A DNA stretch of 31,103 nucleotides from Candidatus Sumerlaeia bacterium (lineage in GTDB: Bacteria > Sumerlaeota > Sumerlaeia > SLMS01), in the NCBI GenBank assembly GCA_038208905.1, contig JBBQYG010000032.1:1-31103 (forward strand), read 5' to 3'. Shown here piece by piece: positions 6,668-31,103 of the stretch. The notes beneath the pieces are model-generated. The model did not search any database and was not told the DNA's origin. It was given only the letters and a program-made list of their open reading frames with translations. The translations under genes and the position numbers were made by a program. The number at the start of each line of letters is the position of its first letter. Within the stretch, counting starts at the first letter, position 1.

Positions 6668-7099
6668 CTAGTGTGATCTGCGGGGGAGCTCCGCCAGAAA
6701 CTGGAGCGGGGTCACGATCGCGATCCCTTGGTGCCTCCCGAGCGCCAGCAGATGCTGGTCCCCAGACACGATCCCATCCACCCGCCCTGCGACCGCCGTG
6801 GCCAGGACCACGTCGTCATCCGGGTCGTTGGGGACGACGCGAGGGATGACCTCAAGGGAGACAATCAGGGCATAGGAGCGGATTCTGAGGACCACGGATT
6901 GAGCATTCTCCACTACTTGGAGCGGACGCTTCAGAAACTTTCTCCGCAGTAGGACCTCCTCCATTTCCTGTATCAGCATCTCGGAAGTGCAGAGGTTGTA
7001 TTGCTCGGCGCGCCACGCCCCCAACACGCGCCCGGGGCCGCCCTCAGGCGTGATCAACGCGCTGACGACGATGTTCGTGTCGAGCACAACGAGCATCAC
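6668..7099 (-). CDS. PIN-domain (VapC-like) toxin
   Basis: VVLDTNIVVSAL, DPDDDVVLATAVAG and IVSGDQHLL acidic PIN motifs; GTGA start/stop overlap with the upstream antitoxin. Confidence 0.9.
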   Translation of the reverse strand: MMLVVLDTNIVVSALITPEGGPGRVLGAWRAEQYNLCTSEMLIQEMEEVLLRRKFLKRPLQVVENAQSVVLRIRSYALIVSLEVIPRVVPNDPDDDVVLATAVAGRVDGIVSGDQHLLALGRHQGIAIVTPLQFLAELPRRSH

Positions 7100-7553: not shown

Positions 7554-11279
<3,726 letters not shown>

Positions 11280-21454: not shown

Positions 21455-22879
21455 TCAGAGCAGCGGCGAAACAAGATAGCCGAAGTTCTCCAAGGCCCGC
21501 GTCACCATACCCGGCGCGCGCCGCTCCCGCGGATCATAGATATCCGCCTGCTCGATCAGCTCCCCCACGTGGGCCTCGATGCCGCGAGTCTCCTCGGAGG
21601 AGTAGACAAACAGCGCGAGTTCGTAGTTCAGGTAGAGGCTCCGCATGTCCATGTTGGGCGAGCCCACGGCGGCCAGCTCGCCATCGATGAGGAGCAGCTT
21701 TGTGTGCAACTGCGGGCCCCTATGAAGATAGACGGTCGCCCCCGCCCGGCACAATTCGCGAAGGTAGTATCGCCTCGCCAGATCCACCATGACCTTGTCC
21801 GATTTCGCAGGCACCACCACGCGGACGTCGCGGCCGATCTGTGCCAGCGTTGTCAGCGTGCGCAGGATCATCGCATCCGGGATGAAGTAGGGCGTCACAA
21901 TCCAGACGCGGCGGCGCGCCTGGAACATCGCGCCGAGGACGGTTTCGTGAAAGGCGTCGGCCTCGATGTCGGGCCCGCTGGCAACGGTCTGGATCGTCAC
22001 ATTGCCCGATCGTTCCGGCGCGGTGGGAAGGCTCTCCGCCATGATCCCCTCCGCGTCTTCCTCCGTCGCAAACTCCCAGTCGCTGGCGAATATCTCCTGA
22101 AGCGAGGCGACCACGGGACCCCTCACGACGATCGCGAAGTCGCGCCACAGGCCCGGGTGCGGCGCGGGCGCGATGTACTCCGCCCCGATATTGCGACCTC
22201 CCACCATTGCCTCGCGCCCGTCAACGATCACGACCTTGCGGTGATTGCGCAGGTGTGCCGACCACTTCCATCGCAGCCGAAGCACGGGGAGGAAGGTGCC
22301 CACCTGCCCGCCTGCGTCTCTCAGGGGCGCCAGGAAACTGCCCAGCGCGTTGAAGCTGCCGAGCCCGTCCAGCAGCAGGCGCACCTTCACGCCCTCTGTG
22401 GCCTTGCGCGCCAACGCATCCACGATCGCCTTGGCAACCTCGTCCCGCGTCAGGATGAACGTGGTGATGTGGATCGTTTCCTTCGCGCCGTCGATCATCT
22501 CCATCAGGCGGCGATAATTGTCCACCGCGTCGGGCAGGAGATCCACCGCGTTCCCGCCCGAGAAAGGCGGCGGTTTGCCGACCAACAGCGGTATCTGGGC
22601 CGCTTCGCCAACCCCCTCGATATGGTCCACCGATCGATTGGCCTTCAGGCTCAGCGGTCCCTTGGCGCGCACCAGCCGACGGAGCTTGCGCCCCCCGAAC
22701 ACCAGAAAGAGCGGGACACCCACGTATGGCACGAAGATGATTGCCAGCAGCCACGCAAAGGTCGCCGAAGGCGGATGGTGTCCCGCGCGCAGCCGACTAA
22801 AGAGGATCACGCCGCAGATAACGCCCGCGACCGAGAGCAGGTGCCCAACGACGATCCCCGCCAGGTCGCGCAGTTCCAT
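21455..22879 (-). CDS. cls: Cardiolipin synthase (PLD superfamily)
   Basis: Two N-terminal TMs (AWLLAIIFVPYVG); two HKD motifs NHRKVVIVDG and LHTKLLLIDG; TPYFIPD; NMDMRSLYLNYE. Confidence 0.92.
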   Translation of the reverse strand: MELRDLAGIVVGHLLSVAGVICGVILFSRLRAGHHPPSATFAWLLAIIFVPYVGVPLFLVFGGRKLRRLVRAKGPLSLKANRSVDHIEGVGEAAQIPLLVGKPPPFSGGNAVDLLPDAVDNYRRLMEMIDGAKETIHITTFILTRDEVAKAIVDALARKATEGVKVRLLLDGLGSFNALGSFLAPLRDAGGQVGTFLPVLRLRWKWSAHLRNHRKVVIVDGREAMVGGRNIGAEYIAPAPHPGLWRDFAIVVRGPVVASLQEIFASDWEFATEEDAEGIMAESLPTAPERSGNVTIQTVASGPDIEADAFHETVLGAMFQARRRVWIVTPYFIPDAMILRTLTTLAQIGRDVRVVVPAKSDKVMVDLARRYYLRELCRAGATVYLHRGPQLHTKLLLIDGELAAVGSPNMDMRSLYLNYELALFVYSSEETRGIEAHVGELIEQADIYDPRERRAPGMVTRALENFGYLVSPLL

Positions 22880-22881
22880 GG

Positions 22882-23112
22882 CTAGAACGGTCGGCTTGGT
22901 CGCGGTCGCGCCGGGTCAAGCCGTCGCCAGTAAGTCGGCATGTTGGGGTCGGGGTCGCGTTCGAGCAGATCCCCCATCGCGATCCTCAGGATGATCGAAT
23001 AGGGGCCCAGCACAAGGAAGTAGAAGAGAAAGCTGATCACCCACGCAAGCACCAGCGCCACCGCGCGGAGAACGCGGAGCAGGACGGCCTGGATGCGGCG
23101 TGGTAAGGACAT
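22882..23112 (-). CDS. Small membrane protein, SxtJ-like
   Basis: 76 aa; LFYFLVLGPYSIILRIAMGDLL...TYWRR...RPF resembles the SxtJ-family C-terminus; stop lies 2 nt from the cls start. Confidence 0.6.
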   Translation of the reverse strand: MSLPRRIQAVLLRVLRAVALVLAWVISFLFYFLVLGPYSIILRIAMGDLLERDPDPNMPTYWRRLDPARPRPSRPF

Positions 23113-23293
23113 TCGGAGTTCAGCCTTGCGCCAGAATCTTGAGATTCGCGCCCGATGGGGTTCGCCATCGGCCCCCATCGTCAAGCCAAGAGCGCCGGGA
23201 CGCCTTTTCCGCTTTCCAACCCCGCGCAAATCATGCTACCTCGCGGGCTGTCGGAGGAAGGGCTTCTCAAGAATTCTCGGCGAGGCAACGGCC

Positions 23294-25309
23294 ATGGCGG
23301 ATCCCTACAGGAACGTGAAGAAGGAAATGGAAGTCCTCCTCAAGGTGGAGGGCGGAATGTCCGCCGATGACCTGCGCAAACAGAAGAACAAGCCCGCCAA
23401 CCCGCTCAAGCTTGGCGGCGAAGAGGGGGGCCGGCTCGGTGACGCCCAAGGCTCCATGGCCTACATGCAGGGCGAGGGCGACGAAGGTTTCGATGCCGGA
23501 TCCATCGGAATGCCCACCGTCGGCGACGTCCTCAAGGACCTCGCCGAGCGCCACGGTCTGCGGTTCGCGGACATGCGCGAGTTCGACCTGAAGAACGAGG
23601 AGAAGGTCGCGCGTCTCACCTCCTACATTCCGTCGAGCGTGGCCCGCGAGCGCCGCGTCTTTGCCGTGGACGAGAAGTCCGTCCCCGGCCAAAAGCCGGT
23701 CCTCACCATCGCCATCGCCGACCCGATGGACATCCACGTGGTGGACGACCTGCGCCTGATGCTCCCCGAGCACGATATCGAACCCGTCGTCTGCAACGAG
23801 GAGGATATCGTCGATGCGGTGAACCGCAACTACGGCGTCGGCGACGAAGACCTCGACGACATGATCGACCTCCTCAACGCCAAGGAGGGCGGCTCTGGAG
23901 AGAGCATGGTTCGCGAGGGCGAAGTCGAGATCAGCGTCGAGGACCTCGCCAACCAGCCCGCCGTCATCAAGCTCGTCAACCTTCTTCTCATCCAGGCCAT
24001 CAAGGATCGCGCATCCGACCTTCACATCGAGCCCATGACGGGAACGATCCGCATCCGCTATCGGGTGGACGGCGTGCTGAGGGAGATTCCCTCGCCGCCA
24101 AAGTCTCTCCAGCTCGGCCTCATCTCCCGCATGAAGGTCATGGCGGTGCTCAACATTTCCGAAACCCGCAAGCCCCAGGACGGGCGCATCCGCCTCAACA
24201 TCGACGGGCGGGAAGTGGACCTTCGCGTCGCCTGCGTCCCGACCGTCCACGGCGAATCCATCGTGATGCGCGTGCTCGACCGTTCCGCCATGATGATCGG
24301 CGTCCAGCAACTTGGAATGCAGAAGGAAGTGGTGGAATCCTTCCTCAAGCGCGCCAGCAAGCCCAACGGGCTTATCCTGGTGACGGGGCCCACGGGCTCC
24401 GGCAAGACGACCACGCTGTACGCCACGCTGCGCGAGATCTACGAACCCGGCTCCAAGTTCATCACCACGGAAGATCCCGTGGAATACGAACTCGCCGGCA
24501 TCGTCCAGGTTAACATCAACGCCAAGGTCGGACTCACCTTCGGCGCCTGCCTCCGAAGCATCCTCCGCCAGGATCCCGACGTCATCCTCGTCGGCGAAAT
24601 CCGCGACGTGGAAACGGCCCAGATCAGCATCCAGGCCGCGCTCACGGGCCACTTGGTGCTCTCCACGCTGCACACCAACTCCGCCTCCGCGACCATCACG
24701 CGCCTTGTTGACATGGGAATCGAGCCCTTCCTGCTCACCTCCACCCTGGAGGCCATCGTCGGCCAGCGCCTCCTGCGCACAATCTGCCCCTCCTGCAAGA
24801 CGCCGTATATACCGACCGACGAGGAGCTGACCGAGTTCGGCGTGTCGCGCGACGAGATCGAGGGCGTGGACTTCTATCAGGGCCGCGGCTGCGACGACTG
24901 CAATTTCAGCGGCTACAAGGGACGCCAGGGCATCTACGAGATGATGGAGGCCACCGAGTCCATCAAGGAACTCATCCTCCAGCACGCCACCACCGACGAC
25001 ATCCACGCCATGGCCGTGCACGAGGGCATGATCACCATGCGCCAGGACGGCTGGCTCAAGATCTGCCTGGGCATCACCACCTTCGAGGAAGTCAGCAAGC
25101 ACACGATGCCCGAGACCGAGGACTCCGTGAAGGCCGAGATGGAATCCGTCCGCCGCTCCCTCGCCAAGATATCCAAGGTCCAGCGCGAGCGCGAGGCAGA
25201 GGAGCGCGGCCAGTCCATGGAGGAAATGGAAGCCGAACAGGCCCGGGGATCCCACGGCGTCATCAACGTTGGCCAGCCCGGCCACGACGATCGGAAGTTG
25301 ATCGAGTAG
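23294..25309 (+). CDS. GspE/PulE/PilB family type II secretion / type IV pilus assembly ATPase
   Basis: ASDLHIEP, RYRVDGVL, PQDGRI, Walker A GPTGSGKTTTLY, TEDPVEY, LRQDPDVILVGEIRD, HLVLSTLHTN, Cys pairs CPSC/CDDC. Confidence 0.95.
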   Translation: MADPYRNVKKEMEVLLKVEGGMSADDLRKQKNKPANPLKLGGEEGGRLGDAQGSMAYMQGEGDEGFDAGSIGMPTVGDVLKDLAERHGLRFADMREFDLKNEEKVARLTSYIPSSVARERRVFAVDEKSVPGQKPVLTIAIADPMDIHVVDDLRLMLPEHDIEPVVCNEEDIVDAVNRNYGVGDEDLDDMIDLLNAKEGGSGESMVREGEVEISVEDLANQPAVIKLVNLLLIQAIKDRASDLHIEPMTGTIRIRYRVDGVLREIPSPPKSLQLGLISRMKVMAVLNISETRKPQDGRIRLNIDGREVDLRVACVPTVHGESIVMRVLDRSAMMIGVQQLGMQKEVVESFLKRASKPNGLILVTGPTGSGKTTTLYATLREIYEPGSKFITTEDPVEYELAGIVQVNINAKVGLTFGACLRSILRQDPDVILVGEIRDVETAQISIQAALTGHLVLSTLHTNSASATITRLVDMGIEPFLLTSTLEAIVGQRLLRTICPSCKTPYIPTDEELTEFGVSRDEIEGVDFYQGRGCDDCNFSGYKGRQGIYEMMEATESIKELILQHATTDDIHAMAVHEGMITMRQDGWLKICLGITTFEEVSKHTMPETEDSVKAEMESVRRSLAKISKVQREREAEERGQSMEEMEAEQARGSHGVINVGQPGHDDRKLIE

Positions 25310-25631: not shown

Positions 25632-26030
25632 TTGGAGCCCGACGTTCTTGCTCTGGATGAGGTGCTTGAGATTCACCTCGATCACGTCTCCCGATACAGC
25701 GGCGAGGCTTCCTTGCGCGACCTGGGCCTTCTGGAATCGGCGCTTGCAACAGCCTTTGGCAAGTTTTGGCGGCGCATGGCTCGCAGGTGATCTCTGTGGC
25801 ATGGCCCCAGCCTATCTCTTCCATATCGTTCAGAACCCCCCTTCATTGATGGCAATAAGCGGACAGGCGCGGTGGCCGCGATTGTCTTCCTTGAGATCAA
25901 TGGCTTTCAGGTGGAGGCTTCACACGAAGAACTCGAAGAACTGGTCCCTGGCGTCGCGCGTGGCCTGATTGACAAGGAGGAAGTGGGCGACTTCTTTCGT
26001 CAACATGCGGGGCCGCTCGATTCGCAATGA
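25632..26030 (+). pseudogene. doc: Death-on-curing (Doc/Fic) toxin pseudogene with two frameshifts
   Basis: Hand translation: MEPDVLALDEVLEIHLDHVSRYSGEASLRDLGLLESALA / QPLASFGGAWLAGDLCGMAPAYLFHIVQN / PFIDGNKRTGAVAAIVFLEING...DFFRQHAGPLDSQ*. Frameshifts near 25749 and 25836-25841; in-frame TGA at 25788. Confidence 0.88.
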
Positions 26031-26812: not shown

Positions 26813-26835
26813 CTTGCTGGGAGTCCTTTTCTAGA

Positions 26836-26979
26836 GGGGGGAAAGACGGGAACGGCGGGAAAGGCGGAAAAGGCGCAAACGGCGAAAAGGATAATCGGAT
26901 AGCTTGTCGCACCGCATGGGTTCTGCTCTCCCCCGTTCCCGCCTTTTCCGTTGTTCCCGTCGTTCCCGCTTTTCCCCCC
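26836..26979. repeat. Two inverted arrays of degenerate 9-bp tandem repeats (consensus about GGAA(A/C)GGCG)
   Basis: Left arm: ggaaagacg ggaacggcg ggaaaggcg gaaaaggcg caaacggcg. Right arm reverse-complemented: ggaaaagcg ggaacgacg ggaacaacg gaaaaggcg ggaacgggg. About 40-nt spacer; G6 and C6 ends. Confidence 0.8.
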
Positions 26980-26985
26980 AAACCA

Positions 26986-27019
26986 CAAGGGCTCCCCTGC
27001 GTCGCAGGAGAGCCCGTTG
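26986..27019 (-). terminator. Hairpin downstream of metK, probable terminator
   Basis: CAAGGGCTCCCCTGC-GTC-GCAGGAGAGCCCGTTG, 23 nt after the metK stop; no clear U-tract. Confidence 0.5.
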
Positions 27020-27042
27020 TATAGACAGTGCCGCGTGATGAC

Positions 27043-28218
27043 TTAGCCCTGGAGCTTCTTGGCCAGGTCCGTCTTCTCCCACGTGAATTCCTTCTCCGTG
27101 CGGCCAAAGTGGCCATAGGCGCTGGTGGCGCTGTAGATCGGCTTGTGAAGCTGGAGGTGCTCGATGATCGCATAGGGGCGCAGGTCGATGCTGTCCACGA
27201 TGCGCTTGGCGATCTCGATATCGGTGATGCCATCCTTGCCCGTTCCGAAGGCATCGACGCGGACGGATGTCGGCTTGGCCACGCCGATGGCGTAGGAGAG
27301 CTGCACTTCGCACCGCGTCGCGAGGCCCGCCGCCACCACGTTCTTGGCCAGGTAGCGCGCCATGTAGGCCGCCGAGCGGTCAACCTTGGACGGGTCCTTG
27401 CCGGAGAACGCGCCGCCGCCGTGGCGACCCATGCCGCCATAGGTGTCCACGATGATCTTGCGGCCCGTCAGGCCCGAATCGCCGTGCGGTCCGCCGATCA
27501 CGAAATTGCCCGTCGGGTTGATGTGAATCTTCATCTTCGCATCCACAAGGCTCTTGGGGAGCGTCTTCAGGATGATCTCCTCCGTCACGGCCTCGCGAAG
27601 GCTCTTCAGGCTGATCGTCGGATCGTGCTGGGTGGAGACCACCACCGTGTCGATGCGGACGGGCTTGAAGCCGTCATACACCATCGTGACCTGGCTCTTG
27701 CCGTCGGGGCGAAGCCAGGGAAGGGTCTTCTTCTTGCGCGCGTCGGCCAGCTTCTTGGTCAGCTTGTGGGCATACATGATCGGCGCGGGCATCAGCTCGG
27801 GCGTCTCGTCGCAGGCAAAGCCAAACATCATGCCCTGGTCGCCGGCCCCTTGCTCCAGCGGGTTCTTGCGATCCACGCCGCGGGCGATGTCGGGGCTCTG
27901 GGAATGCAGCGCCGCCAACACGCCACAGGAATCCGCGTCGAAGCGATAGTCGGGGCTCGTGTAGCCGATGCGGCGCACGGTCTGGCGGACGACTTCCTGC
28001 ACGTCGATATAGGCCTTCGTGGTCACTTCGCCGGCCACAACCACCAGGCCCGTCGTCACCATCGTCTCACACGCGACGCGGCTCAGGTGGGCCTCGCCCG
28101 TCTTGCCGTCCGACTCCAGAATGGCATCAAGGACGGCGTCGCTGATCGCGTCGCACACCTTGTCGGGATGACCTTCCGTCACGGATTCGGAGGTGAACAG
28201 GGAGAGATTCTTGGACAT
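27043..28218 (-). CDS. metK: S-adenosylmethionine synthetase
   Basis: [62 protein letters not shown] at 28218. Confidence 0.98.
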
Positions 28219-28594
28219 CAGGCATTGATCCTTGCATAGGCCCGCCGCGCCGGGGCGGAGAGGTGGATGGCCAACCCAACTGGCCGGAATTCGACCGCCG
28301 AATTGAGGGAGGCGGCGGCGGGCGGTGCAAGGGGATTGCGGAACGGCAGCGGGCCGGCAGGGATGAGTGCGGCGGGGTGAGGCCTGAACGGCAAAGGTGG
28401 CATTTTGCCATTCGTGGTTGAGCCTCACGAATGAAGGTATGCGTGAGAGGTCCGCGATTTCCTGCAAGCCCCTGTCGGGGAACTCTTCGCAGTTTTTCAT
28501 CGTTTTCCCTTGCCAAGCGGGGGGGGGAAAAAGGTACGCCAATGATGTTGTCCTTAGTGGATCAACTCAGACCTTGCAAGGAGCACGATCCCTC

Positions 28595-28849
28595 ATGAAT
28601 CACCTGCTTTGCGCCGCCGCCGTTGGGCTTTTCGCCCTCGCCGCCGCGCCCATATTCGCCCTGAGTGGCAGCGGTGATTCAGAACCCTTCATTCTGGACA
28701 CTCGGACCAACCAACCCAACTCCGGATTCGCCGATTCCACTCCTTTCGTTCTCGACACCCGCTCGGCACCGCTCAACTCCGGCTTCGCGGACTCCACTCC
28801 GTTCGTCCTCGACACACGAACCTCCATTAACGCTTGGGTATTTCGCTAA
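28595..28849 (+). CDS. 84-aa secreted protein with three DSxPFxLDTR repeats
   Basis: AAGGAG RBS; signal peptide MNHLLCAAAVGLFALAAAPIFA; repeats 2 and 3 (28718-28762, 28775-28819) differ only at synonymous positions, which supports coding. Confidence 0.85.
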   Translation: MNHLLCAAAVGLFALAAAPIFALSGSGDSEPFILDTRTNQPNSGFADSTPFVLDTRSAPLNSGFADSTPFVLDTRTSINAWVFR

Positions 28850-28885: not shown

Positions 28886-30277
28886 ATGATGAAAAATATC
28901 CTCCTGACTGCCTTCCTCGTCGCCTCCCTCGTGGCGCCCGCGCTCATGTCGGCCCAGCCCGTGGTCGGCAATATCACCGCCAGCCAGCGCTCCTCCGGCG
29001 ACAGGGCCGTGGACATCTCCTACGACCTCTCGAACGGTAACGGTGCGATGACTGTCACTGTCCTTGTCTCCAACGACAACGGCGCTACGTTCTCCATCAC
29101 ACCGCAGGCTCAGTACCTCACGGGTGACATCGGCGCCGGAATCAACAACGGCACCGGTTATTCCATCGTGTGGGATGCGGTGACGGACGTGCCGGAGACT
29201 TTCTGGCCCCAGACCCGCATTCGCATCATCGCAACGGAAGAAGGCACTGGGCCCGGCACCGTTGCCCTCGCGATCTCGAGCAACGTCACCGCTCCCGTTC
29301 ATCAGTCCGCCGCCCAGACGCTCACTTTCACTTTCGCGCAGTCCGTCACCGGCTTCGACGCCTCCGACGTGACCGTGACGGGTGCCACCAAGGGTGCCTT
29401 CTCCGGTTCGGGCGCCGCCTATACGCTAGGCATCACGGGCACGGGAGGCACCATTTCCGTATCTGTACCCGAAAGCGCAACCAACCCGGGCAACCTCGCC
29501 TCCACCTTCTCCAACTTCTACCAGGACACCTGGACGGTGACGCTCCCCGGCGCGGTGCCGATGGAACTGATCCGCATCCCGGCGGGGACGTTCACCATGG
29601 GCTCGCCGGTGACGGAACTCTCGCGCGACGACACCGAAACCGAGCACACGGTCACGCTCTCGCAGGACTTCTACCTCGGCAAGACGGAGGTGACACAGCA
29701 GCAGTGGCAGGCGGTGCGCGGCTCGTGGCCGGGCACCGCGCCCTCGGCGGGCAACGGCCTCGGGAATGCCTTCCCCGCCTATAACGTATCACACAATGAC
29801 ATCCAGTCATTCATGGCGGACCTCGACACGGCGATCACGGAGCCGGGCACGTTCGCCCTGCCAACGGAATCGCAGTGGGAGTACGCGGCGCGCGCGGGAA
29901 CGACGACGCGGTTCAACTTCGGCGACGGCTTCGGCGCCGATGAATTCTGCTCCGCGGAGGCCGAGCGGACGAACAACATGTGGTACTGCGGGAACAACTC
30001 GCCGAGCGGCACGAAGGCCGTGGGCCAGAAGCCGGCCAACGCTTGGGGGCTGCGCGACATGCACGGAAACGTTTGGGAATGGTGCGCCGATTGGTTCGGA
30101 CCGTACCCTGGAACCGTCACCGATCCCACGGGGCCTGTGAGTGGTTCGATCCGCGTGATTCGCGGCGGCAGCTGGTACAGCAGCGCCCAGTACTGCCGGT
30201 CGGCCTTTCGTATCTACATCGACCCGTCGTTCCGGTACGACAGCGTCGGGTTCCGCGTTCTTTCTCCAGTCCAGTGA
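28886..30277 (+). CDS. Secreted FGE-sulfatase (SUMF1/CLec-fold) domain protein with N-terminal Ig-like domains; probable DGR variable protein
   Basis: Signal peptide; beta-rich N-terminal domains; MELIRIPAGTFTMGS, TEVTQQQW, LPTESQWEYAARAG, NAWGLRDMHGNVWEWC, RVIRGGSW...GFRV. Confidence 0.92.
   Translation: MMKNILLTAFLVASLVAPALMSAQPVVGNITASQRSSGDRAVDISYDLSNGNGAMTVTVLVSNDNGATFSITPQAQYLTGDIGAGINNGTGYSIVWDAVTDVPETFWPQTRIRIIATEEGTGPGTVALAISSNVTAPVHQSAAQTLTFTFAQSVTGFDASDVTVTGATKGAFSGSGAAYTLGITGTGGTISVSVPESATNPGNLASTFSNFYQDTWTVTLPGAVPMELIRIPAGTFTMGSPVTELSRDDTETEHTVTLSQDFYLGKTEVTQQQWQAVRGSWPGTAPSAGNGLGNAFPAYNVSHNDIQSFMADLDTAITEPGTFALPTESQWEYAARAGTTTRFNFGDGFGADEFCSAEAERTNNMWYCGNNSPSGTKAVGQKPANAWGLRDMHGNVWEWCADWFGPYPGTVTDPTGPVSGSIRVIRGGSWYSSAQYCRSAFRIYIDPSFRYDSVGFRVLSPVQ
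30149..30259 (+). other. Putative DGR variable region (VR)
   Basis: Invariant RGGSW/CRSA/GFR scaffold interleaved with NNY codons (ATC, ATT, TAC, AGC, AGC, TAC, TTT, ATC, TAC, ATC, GAC, TTC, TAC, GAC, AGC, GTC), all derivable from AAY by changing only adenines. Confidence 0.65.
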
Positions 30278-30399
30278 CGTGGGCCAAGCAGCGCAGGCCG
30301 GGCGGGTGCTGCGTGCCGACGGTCAGGAGGTCGAGCGGAGCGAGAGCATGCACCCACCCGAGCCGAAGCGACCGCGAGCACAGTGCAGTTGCTGAAGGG

Positions 30400-30425
30400 G
30401 TTTGGGGGGCGCAAGCCCCCCAAAC
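30400..30425. other. Perfect 11-bp hairpin with GCAA loop (candidate DGR target-recognition hairpin and/or terminator)
   Basis: GTTTGGGGGGC-GCAA-GCCCCCCAAAC followed by TTTAT. Confidence 0.7.
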
Positions 30426-30450
30426 TTTATAAGAACTGCTGGAAGCCTCG

Positions 30451-30603
30451 GTGCAGTTCCGCATTTTCTCCATCCCCGCAACGGGTTCTCCCGATCTGGA
30501 GGAGGAACTGAATCTGTTCCTGCGGTCGCACCGCGTTGTGACGGCGCAGAAGACATTGCAGGCTGTGGAGGGGGTGCTGCGCGGCTCTCCCTTCCTCGGG
30601 TAA
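30451..30603 (+). pseudogene. Truncated N-terminus of an HRDC-type DGR accessory protein
   Basis: Not in the ORF track. GTG-started MQFRIFSIPATGSPDLEEELNLFLRSHRVVTAQKTLQAVEGVLRGSPFLG*; the EEELNxFLRSHRV pattern matches my recollection of DGR-associated HRDC proteins, but the HRDC domain itself is absent. Confidence 0.7.
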
Positions 30604-30711
30604 GCTTCAGCAGGTTGTGGGCGAGGATCGCGAGGCTGGCCTGCTCGCGGAAGCTTACGCTACCCATGCCCTGACTGTACAACTGTACGGGCGCCGTTGA
30701 TCCCTCAGGCC

Positions 30712-31103
30712 TCATCCCTGGCCTTCCTCCCTGCCCGGCAGCACCGCCTTGTCATGCGCCGTCAACTCCCGCCGCCCCTTGCAGACGGGCCAGCAGGTGC
30801 AGCCCCAGAAGCGGCGTTTGCGCTTGGGGGTTTTGAGGACCGTGGCGGCGCCGCATCGGGGGCATTGGGGCGGGGTGGCTGTGGGGGTGGCGTTGAGGAG
30901 GGCGTTTGCGAGCCAGCCGGTGCTTGGGGGGGCGGTGGCTCGGGCTTTGGCGAGGAGGGTTTGGAGTTTGTCGCCGTCGATGAGGGCGATGTCGCGCTCG
31001 CGGGCGAGGTCGAGGCATTCGGGGTCGAAGGATTCGGTGGAGAGGAAGTAGGCGCACTTCGCGCGGTCTCGGCGGAGCTCGTCGGCAAACTCGCGAAGGA
31101 TGG
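30712..31103 (-). CDS. 3' part of an Mrr-like restriction endonuclease domain protein with topoisomerase-type C4 zinc finger
   Basis: Not in the ORF track. Open frame from 31101: ILREFADELRRDRAKCAYFLSTESFDPECLDLARERDIALIDGDKLQTLL...PQCPRCGAATVLK...RFWGCTCWPVCKG...GQG*. Confidence 0.75.
   Translation of the reverse strand, partial: ILREFADELRRDRAKCAYFLSTESFDPECLDLARERDIALIDGDKLQTLLAKARATAPPSTGWLANALLNATPTATPPQCPRCGAATVLKTPKRKRRFWGCTCWPVCKGRRELTAHDKAVLPGREEGQG

Follow-up and report, generated by a model that had tools for sequence, protein, structure and literature searches.

A truncated HRDC-type accessory gene downstream of an apparently orphaned DGR target gene

Introduction

HRDC accessory genes of DGRs are already known; they are treated in sections of two earlier papers (PMC5758913; PMC4891356) and named in a third (PMC3240598). 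The portion of the survey by Wu et al. (2018) that deals with them distinguishes 11 architectures among 14 HRDC-type DGRs (PMC5758913), while the DGR of Treponema denticola is presented in sections of Nimkulrat et al. (2016) as having its accessory gene between TR and RT (PMC4891356), with an overlap of 47 bp between the accessory gene and the RT (PMC4891356). Sections of the same paper also describe orphan DGR targets in T. denticola and read them as an incomplete loss of the DGR core (PMC4891356). For phage DGRs, the relevant section of Guo et al. (2011) gives a hairpin with a stem of 7-10 bp and a GRNA loop, located 4-34 bp past the VR (PMC3240598).

The locus considered here lies near the right end of the window, by which we mean the whole 31,103-nt stretch of DNA that was analysed. 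From the left end of the cassette to codon 44 of the accessory gene the window is collinear with intact relatives, and these relatives resemble both 'Architecture C' (PMC5758913) and the T. denticola DGR (PMC4891356) as the sections cited describe them, in that their accessory protein of ~160 aa has a C-terminal HRDC domain, their targets are of the FGE/C-type-lectin type and their RT abuts or overlaps the accessory gene. The window itself departs from the T. denticola arrangement, as given in those sections, in holding codons 1-44 of the accessory gene only and no HRDC domain (PMC4891356). We propose, with a probability of about 0.85, that the 50-aa ORF found at this position is a dead 5' stump, left over from the HRDC-type accessory gene of a DGR that lay on the chromosome and the rest of which was cut away.

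Results

The 50-aa ORF has a GTG start and occupies 30451-30603 on the forward strand in the ORF list of the window. Both the peptide quoted in the initial annotation and its distance of 25 nt from a hairpin are borne out by this list and by an 11-bp stem at 30400-30425. A search of 5.8 billion proteins, considering longer lengths only, yielded six matches among 59 candidates, with E-values from 2.3e-16 to 6.8e-10 and lengths of 137-163 aa. The domain PF00570 (HRDC) is present in all six, which align with residues 1-44 of the ORF without gaps at 70-89% identity (the sixth over 39 residues), so that the earlier identification of the ORF as the stump of an HRDC-type accessory gene holds; the homologues are, as had been anticipated, HRDC proteins associated with RT and FGE genes. 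The seven-row alignment A1 has 22 invariant columns across residues 1-44 and every one of them is kept in the window. The N-terminal signature of the family is likewise retained as far as M-Q-F..., E-E-L-N-x-F-L-R-S-H-R, with the following W-x-F-C-x-E-Y absent, and the presence of half a signature is the state to be expected of a fragment.

The end of the similarity can be placed to the nucleotide. After R44 the relatives continue with W-C-F-C-V-E-Y and the window with GSPFLG and a stop codon, which sets the breakpoint between 30582 and 30583, directly before an invariant Trp (alignment A1). The similarity had previously been thought to stop at about 30585, just before the Trp; the relation to the Trp was right and the position is corrected to 30582/30583. 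This Trp is W45, found in 75 of 75 sequences of alignment A4 and absent from the stump. When the six HRDC relatives were compared with the whole window by tblastn, the match was confined to 30451-30582, with E-values of 3e-22 to 4e-17, and for the sixth relative to its residues 1-39 (30451-30567, E 6e-16); with the same six proteins no HRDC-like sequence was found past 30582 in any frame of the window, nor was the HRDC 3' half found anywhere in its 31,103 nt. The restriction of the tblastn match to 30451-30582 rules out a simple frameshift, and it also rules out a 3' half displaced to another place in the 31 kb. The ORF thus consists of two parts, the 5' part of an HRDC-type DGR accessory gene (codons 1-44; 30451-30582, forward strand), identified by homologues, alignment and tblastn, and a junction-derived tail of GSPFLG and a stop codon (30583-30603, forward strand), which alignment A1 and tblastn show to be unrelated to the family.

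Taken alone, the 50 aa gave zero matches in Pfam and NCBIfam, the HRDC domain PF00570 included, a silence that is expected of a piece without the HRDC domain. Having no such domain and no adjoining RT, the ORF is better regarded as a fragmentary pseudogene belonging to the HRDC family than as a member protein. Just two of the 44 stump residues, A32 and E40, are unlike those of all six relatives, which suggests that the gene was cut recently in comparison with the time at which these lineages diverged. A public predicted protein, P0128, is identical over the 50 aa including the foreign tail and represents a cluster of five sequences on two contigs, the longest contig bearing the cluster having 21,891 nt; the two contigs could be re-assemblies of one data set. 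Further shortened versions of the accessory gene occur on other contigs from other data sets: P0129 (57 aa) departs from the family after the same Arg44 as the window and then has a different continuation, and in P0130 (37 aa) the family sequence is left after E-E-L-N; either may reflect a frameshift, the end of a contig or a break of its own.

One scan of genome contigs with an alignment of the six proteins gave 155 relatives of the accessory protein, and the counts reported below for the family rest on the 80 loci fetched from among them. The closest genome-contig relatives show 64-66% identity; the nearest full-length relatives of the stump (P0001-P0004, 86-89% over 44 aa) are known as proteins only. 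MAGs of Planctomycetota, Verrucomicrobiota, Hydrogenedentota and Proteobacteria predominate among the hosts, which also include one Treponema MAG (L028). An AlphaFold2 model of P0002, built from 75 aligned sequences (mean pLDDT 90.6), presents an N-terminal domain with strands at residues 2-9, 28-39 and 42-52 and a helix at 14-26, followed by a disordered linker and then by HRDC helices at 72-149. The modelled C-terminal domain superposes on the HRDC domain of E. coli RecQ (1wud) with a TM score of 0.85 and an rmsd of 0.9 Å, whereas for the N-terminal domain neither a significant PDB fold match nor a usable match in the ESM Atlas was found. Projected onto this model, the stump would code for the first two strands, the helix between them and the initial three residues of strand 3; ending three residues into that strand and without the invariant Trp, it would be predicted neither to fold nor to function.

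An FGE homologue lies upstream of the HRDC gene on the same strand in 57 of the 80 loci, these being the loci where a target stop is definable (nine of the other 23 have less than 400 nt of upstream sequence), and the spacer between the two genes measures 2-259 nt with a median of 158 nt. The corresponding spacer of the window, 173 nt on the same strand, falls within this range. Downstream, the next ORF 3' of the HRDC gene carries RVT_1 (Pfam) in 29 of 30 tested loci, drawn from the 62 in which the downstream sequence is 2.5 kb or longer; for L019, the sole miss, the ORF compared was probably in the wrong frame. The two genes may overlap, as in L005, with an HRDC gene that runs to 10492 and an RT ORF that begins at 10446. 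Past the RT, an A-specific TR, in which 90-170 nt from the 3' end of the target are copied, is found in 47 of the 61 testable loci, starting 973-1178 nt after the HRDC end, and 805 of the 870 VR/TR mismatches in these 47 loci fall at TR adenines. The remaining 14 of the 61 loci with enough flank gave no qualifying TR match. The family loci are bona fide DGRs. Their order is target-HRDC-RT-TR, and the order target-HRDC-TR-RT given in the initial annotation has to be replaced by this one.

The gene upstream of the stump (28886-30277, forward strand) is an intact DGR target gene of 463 aa, assigned by its Pfam FGE-sulfatase domain and its homologue P0008. The FGE-sulfatase domain, of the C-type-lectin fold, is C-terminal (residues 227-459, E 6.8e-45); it is accompanied by an Ig-like region, for which Big_12 scores 26.8 bits, just below the cut-off of 27, and, at the N-terminus, by a hydrophobic leader resembling a signal peptide. 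P0008, the nearest homologue, is 91% identical with 41 differences, 14 of which cluster in residues 429-457. The comparison also has a mosaic appearance, with one difference and one terminal gap in residues 1-217 and 39 differences in residues 218-463, which suggests that the N-terminal half does not share the history of the FGE-domain half and of the DGR side of the locus.

The VR is placed at the 3' end of the target (30143-30277, forward strand), where the 5' limit is set by homology to foreign TRs and the 3' limit is approximate: the TRs of relatives align to 30142-30264, the homology extends to 30261 and the target stop codon ends at 30277. Against the TR of L014 the window VR is mismatched at 16 of 31 A positions and at 13 of 88 others, against that of L002 at 16 of 29 and 12 of 83, and against that of L047 at 20 of 35 and 12 of 74, so that more than half of the A positions and 14-27% of the other positions differ from these foreign TRs. 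Such a pattern is that of a diversified VR, as judged indirectly against non-cognate TRs. The mismatches at adenines and the 14 differences from P0008 in residues 429-457 both favour the view, put forward in the initial annotation, that the upstream gene is a true DGR target, and the sequence comparisons support the conclusion that 28886-30277 behaves as one.

Two elements are recognizable in the spacer. The first is the conserved motif GAGCGGAGCGAG at 30333-30344 (forward strand), 57 nt past the target stop and the sole exact match in the window. Among the 68 spacers compared, no word is more enriched than the 8-mer GCGGAGCG, present in 26 against ~1.1 expected from flanking DNA, and in 2.0 Mb scanned on both strands 26 of 81 matches of the degenerate form of the motif fall within 260 nt before an HRDC start. 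The core motif lies 0-73 nt past the target stop in 28 of 57 loci. A motif of the GAGCGGAGCGAG type is seen between VR and hairpin, sometimes doubled, for example in the spacers of L001, L002, L004 and L018, and where a locus has a second target the motif can flank that one as well (L025, L061, L069); the per-locus match list of the degenerate-motif scan has none at the TR position. A literal literature search with the 10-nt motif core gave, among the matches listed, none on DGRs.

The second element is the GC-rich hairpin or cruciform mentioned above (30400-30425, forward strand), the perfect 11-bp stem of which is formed by the arms GTTTGGGGGGC and GCCCCCCAAAC around a GCAA loop. Perfect hairpins of at least 7 bp that end 0-59 nt before the HRDC start are present in 22 of 68 loci against ~1.1 in shuffles, and the hairpin of the window, ~125-140 nt past the VR, has a placement typical of the HRDC subfamily. 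Hairpins upstream of the HRDC gene were also noted in L003 and L005. In L015, L018 and L024 a T run follows the hairpin, which makes a terminator role possible; the hairpin may be a terminator of the target gene, besides or instead of a DGR cruciform. With target, VR, spacer motif and hairpin all intact, the target would now be an orphan.

The initial annotation had supposed the HRDC 3' half, the TR and the RT to be deleted or displaced, and all three are indeed absent from the 31 kb of the window. No repeat of the VR that could be the TR of 30143-30277 was found in the 31,103 nt, and no RT was detected there, the best of eight RT queries reaching E 0.065 in tblastn and no RVT domain being present in the scanned ORFs. 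The window extends 520 nt beyond the break. The first 129 nt, from the break to the convergent stop codon (30583-30711), form an apparently non-coding stretch with an imperfect inverted repeat (30600-30611 and 30647-30658). Next comes the 3' part of a convergent restriction-endonuclease-like gene (30712-31101, reverse strand), which runs off the window, combines Mrr_cat with a topoisomerase-type zinc ribbon and is not a DGR gene. The Pfam score for Mrr_cat (E 5.4e-05) is 23.7 bits against a cut-off of 21, that for Zn_ribbon_Top1 (E 1.1e-05) lies below its cut-off, and one weak plasmid match of the gene is annotated as 'restriction endonuclease'.

Comparison of 30583-31103 with the 80 DGR loci by blastn and tblastx gave chance or compositional matches only. 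A clean internal deletion reaching to the cassette's own 3' flank is unsupported, as 30583-31103 matches none of the 80 loci. An IS remnant at the junction was considered on account of a minus-strand peptide (30583-30715) with the look of a transposase tail, and was rejected because the searches came back empty: the peptide matched nothing in Pfam, in NCBIfam or, by tblastn with E up to 10, in 72,556 plasmids, and phmmer against 1.84 billion representatives gave one unrelated match, a 1747-aa repeat protein with ~30 weak repeats. A structured RNA at the junction was also dismissed, the fold being no better than that of shuffles (z = 0.48). Rfam families were not detected in the window, no tRNA was found, and 30100-31103 contains no terminator-like or promoter-like sites. 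The G+C content is 0.63-0.69 on either side of the junction, with no shift, and no IS end, mobile-element end, integrase, target-site duplication or significant repeat was seen there. An exact 10-nt direct repeat, GGGTGCTGCG, is found at 30304-30313 and 30572-30581, the second copy ending 1 nt before the breakpoint; as microhomology at the break it was discarded, a repeat of this kind being at about chance level in 854 GC-rich nt. A 17-nt inverted repeat, 82% complementary, spans the break (30569-30585 and 30733-30749).

Several other features of the window were recorded. The small protein encoded just upstream of the target (28397-28849, forward strand) begins with a hydrophobic leader, contains three repeats that each end in P-F-(I/V)-L-D-T-R, and belongs to no Pfam family. 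A broken Fic/Doc-type toxin-like gene (25635-26030, forward strand; Pfam Fic E 7e-4, below cut-off), with in-frame stops upstream, brings the decayed genes of accessory type in the window to two. The region between an SDR gene and metK, at the 3' end of the latter, contains an imperfect palindrome (26819-26996) with 76-nt arms that are 74% complementary and 26 nt apart and with purine-rich and pyrimidine-rich runs, followed by a GC-rich hairpin (~26990-27020). A PIN-domain gene (6671-7099, reverse strand; PIN_3 E 4e-20) is probably a toxin-antitoxin module. Housekeeping genes of the chromosome make up the rest of the window, among them those for MetH (7554-11279), MetK (27043-28542, reverse strand), a type II/IV secretion ATPase (23093-25309) and a PLD-family protein (21455-22879, reverse strand).

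Discussion

If the 50-aa ORF is the dead stump of an accessory gene, the ancestral cassette would have resembled that of the intact relatives, in which an FGE-type target with its VR is succeeded on the same strand by ~160 nt of spacer, an accessory gene for ~160 aa, an RT and a TR. The spacer holds a GC-rich hairpin as well as a motif like GAGCGGAGCGAG, and the RT abuts or overlaps the accessory gene. A rearrangement would then have joined codon 44 to unrelated DNA downstream of the convergent restriction-endonuclease-like gene, and the stump would have lost the Trp strand and the whole HRDC domain and gained six foreign residues. Going by the geometry of the relatives, the lost part would amount to ~1.5 kb, to which the accessory gene would contribute ~354 nt, the RT ~1.0 kb and the TR ~130 nt. 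Unless the genome has a compatible RT and TR in some other place, the VR would be frozen. As to the nature of the event, a simple deletion appears the most likely, an opinion that we hold with some confidence and no great firmness.

Next in likelihood after deletion, and tentative at best, comes displacement of the rest of the cassette beyond the window end. An insertion that brought the restriction-endonuclease-like gene, or an inversion, would have split the accessory gene, and the rest of the HRDC gene, the RT and the TR would survive past 31103, perhaps in active form. The window stops 520 nt past the break, which leaves room for such an arrangement, and restriction-endonuclease-like genes such as the one to the right of the break are of a type common in mobile islands; yet the G+C content is unchanged across the junction (0.63-0.69), and tRNA, integrase, IS end and target-site duplication are none of them seen. 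The 17-nt inverted repeat across the break would suit an inversion or insertion, but it is one of nine alike in 854 nt and hence at chance level. An RT standing apart from its accessory gene would, moreover, be unlike 29 of the 30 relatives tested, where the two abut.

A bolder reading, and a rather improbable one in our estimation, is that the locus is alive. The orphan target, which has kept its VR, the GAGCGGAGCGAG motif and the distal hairpin, would be diversified in trans by an RT and a TR located elsewhere in the genome, and motif and hairpin would form a new recognition module specific to HRDC-type DGRs. If this were true, the module would replace the VR-adjacent GRNA hairpin of phage DGRs and would perhaps be bound by the N-terminal domain of the accessory protein.

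A related and still less probable idea is that of a partial duplication, in which a remote target was copied together with its 3' flank and 44 accessory codons, so that an intact DGR elsewhere might serve the VR in trans. The cis elements past the VR are intact in the window, and the family often has extra targets that were duplicated together with their 3' flank, 25 cases being counted in the 80 loci; several DGRs in one genome are reported, in the section of the survey that counts them, for ~10% of DGR-bearing genomes (PMC5758913). However, the 25 duplications stop 8-144 nt short of the HRDC ORF, and not one of them extends more than 7 nt into it. A search of the 80 loci for second targets bearing a stump likewise came up with none, and no duplication past +7 nt of the HRDC ORF. 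Nor do the genome contigs, a collection that may lack the species, contain an intact copy of high identity, the best reaching 64-66%.

The VR and TR repeats in DGR loci disturb short-read assembly, and the junction at 30582/30583 might for this reason be a chimera of unrelated pieces, the real cassette being intact. We regard this as very unlikely, for the accessory gene is broken internally, at a point 300 nt beyond the VR and not at a repeat, and P0128, junction tail included, represents five sequences on two contigs; other shortened accessory genes, P0129 and P0130, are moreover present in other data sets. Hardly credible is a functional mini-protein, with the 50-aa ORF as a complete small gene, even though its start codon is at the family start position and an ORF caller predicted P0128, when all 75 relatives extending past residue 44 continue to the Trp and the HRDC domain, residues 42-52 make up the third strand of the only sheet in the P0002 model, the six C-terminal residues have no counterpart in the family, and P0129 and P0130 end differently from each other.

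We therefore retain the reading of the ORF as a dead stump. Its presence marks the FGE-family gene at 28886-30277 as a former or remote DGR target and not as a sulfatase-maturation enzyme, and it places one end of the rearrangement at a single nucleotide position. The locus is a clean example of DGR decay, of a kind already reported in Treponema denticola. Two by-products of the analysis may be more useful than the stump itself, namely the uniform order target-HRDC-RT-TR across many phyla (47 of 61 loci) and the conserved motif and distal hairpin of the target 3' flank, which are candidate recognition signals.

Among the closest described systems are the orphan targets of T. denticola, as the sections cited portray them, since there too an intact target whose VR mismatches lie mainly at adenines has no adjoining RT or TR (PMC4891356). 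The window differs from those orphan targets, so far as they are described there, in that it keeps a fragment of the accessory gene and one breakpoint exact to the nucleotide, and in that the absence of RT and TR is known within the window (PMC4891356). Compared with the complete T. denticola DGR as presented in the same paper's sections, the position of the TR is different as well, for it follows the RT in the 47 family loci where it could be placed (PMC4891356).

The spacer invites comparison with the BPP-1 DGR and its IMH and GC-rich hairpin or cruciform, as the corresponding section describes them (PMC3240598). Common to both is a GC-rich inverted repeat with a 4-nt loop that lies 3' of the VR and not of the TR, and in multi-target relatives of the window locus the hairpin-bearing flank has been copied along with the target. 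The dimensions differ from those given in that section, the hairpin of the window being ~125-140 nt past the VR in place of 4-34 bp, with a loop of GCAA in place of GRNA and a stem of 11 bp in place of 7-10 bp (PMC3240598). Set against the BPP-1 arrangement described there, the window also has the GAGCGGAGCGAG motif between VR and hairpin, and some of its relatives have a T run after the hairpin (PMC3240598).
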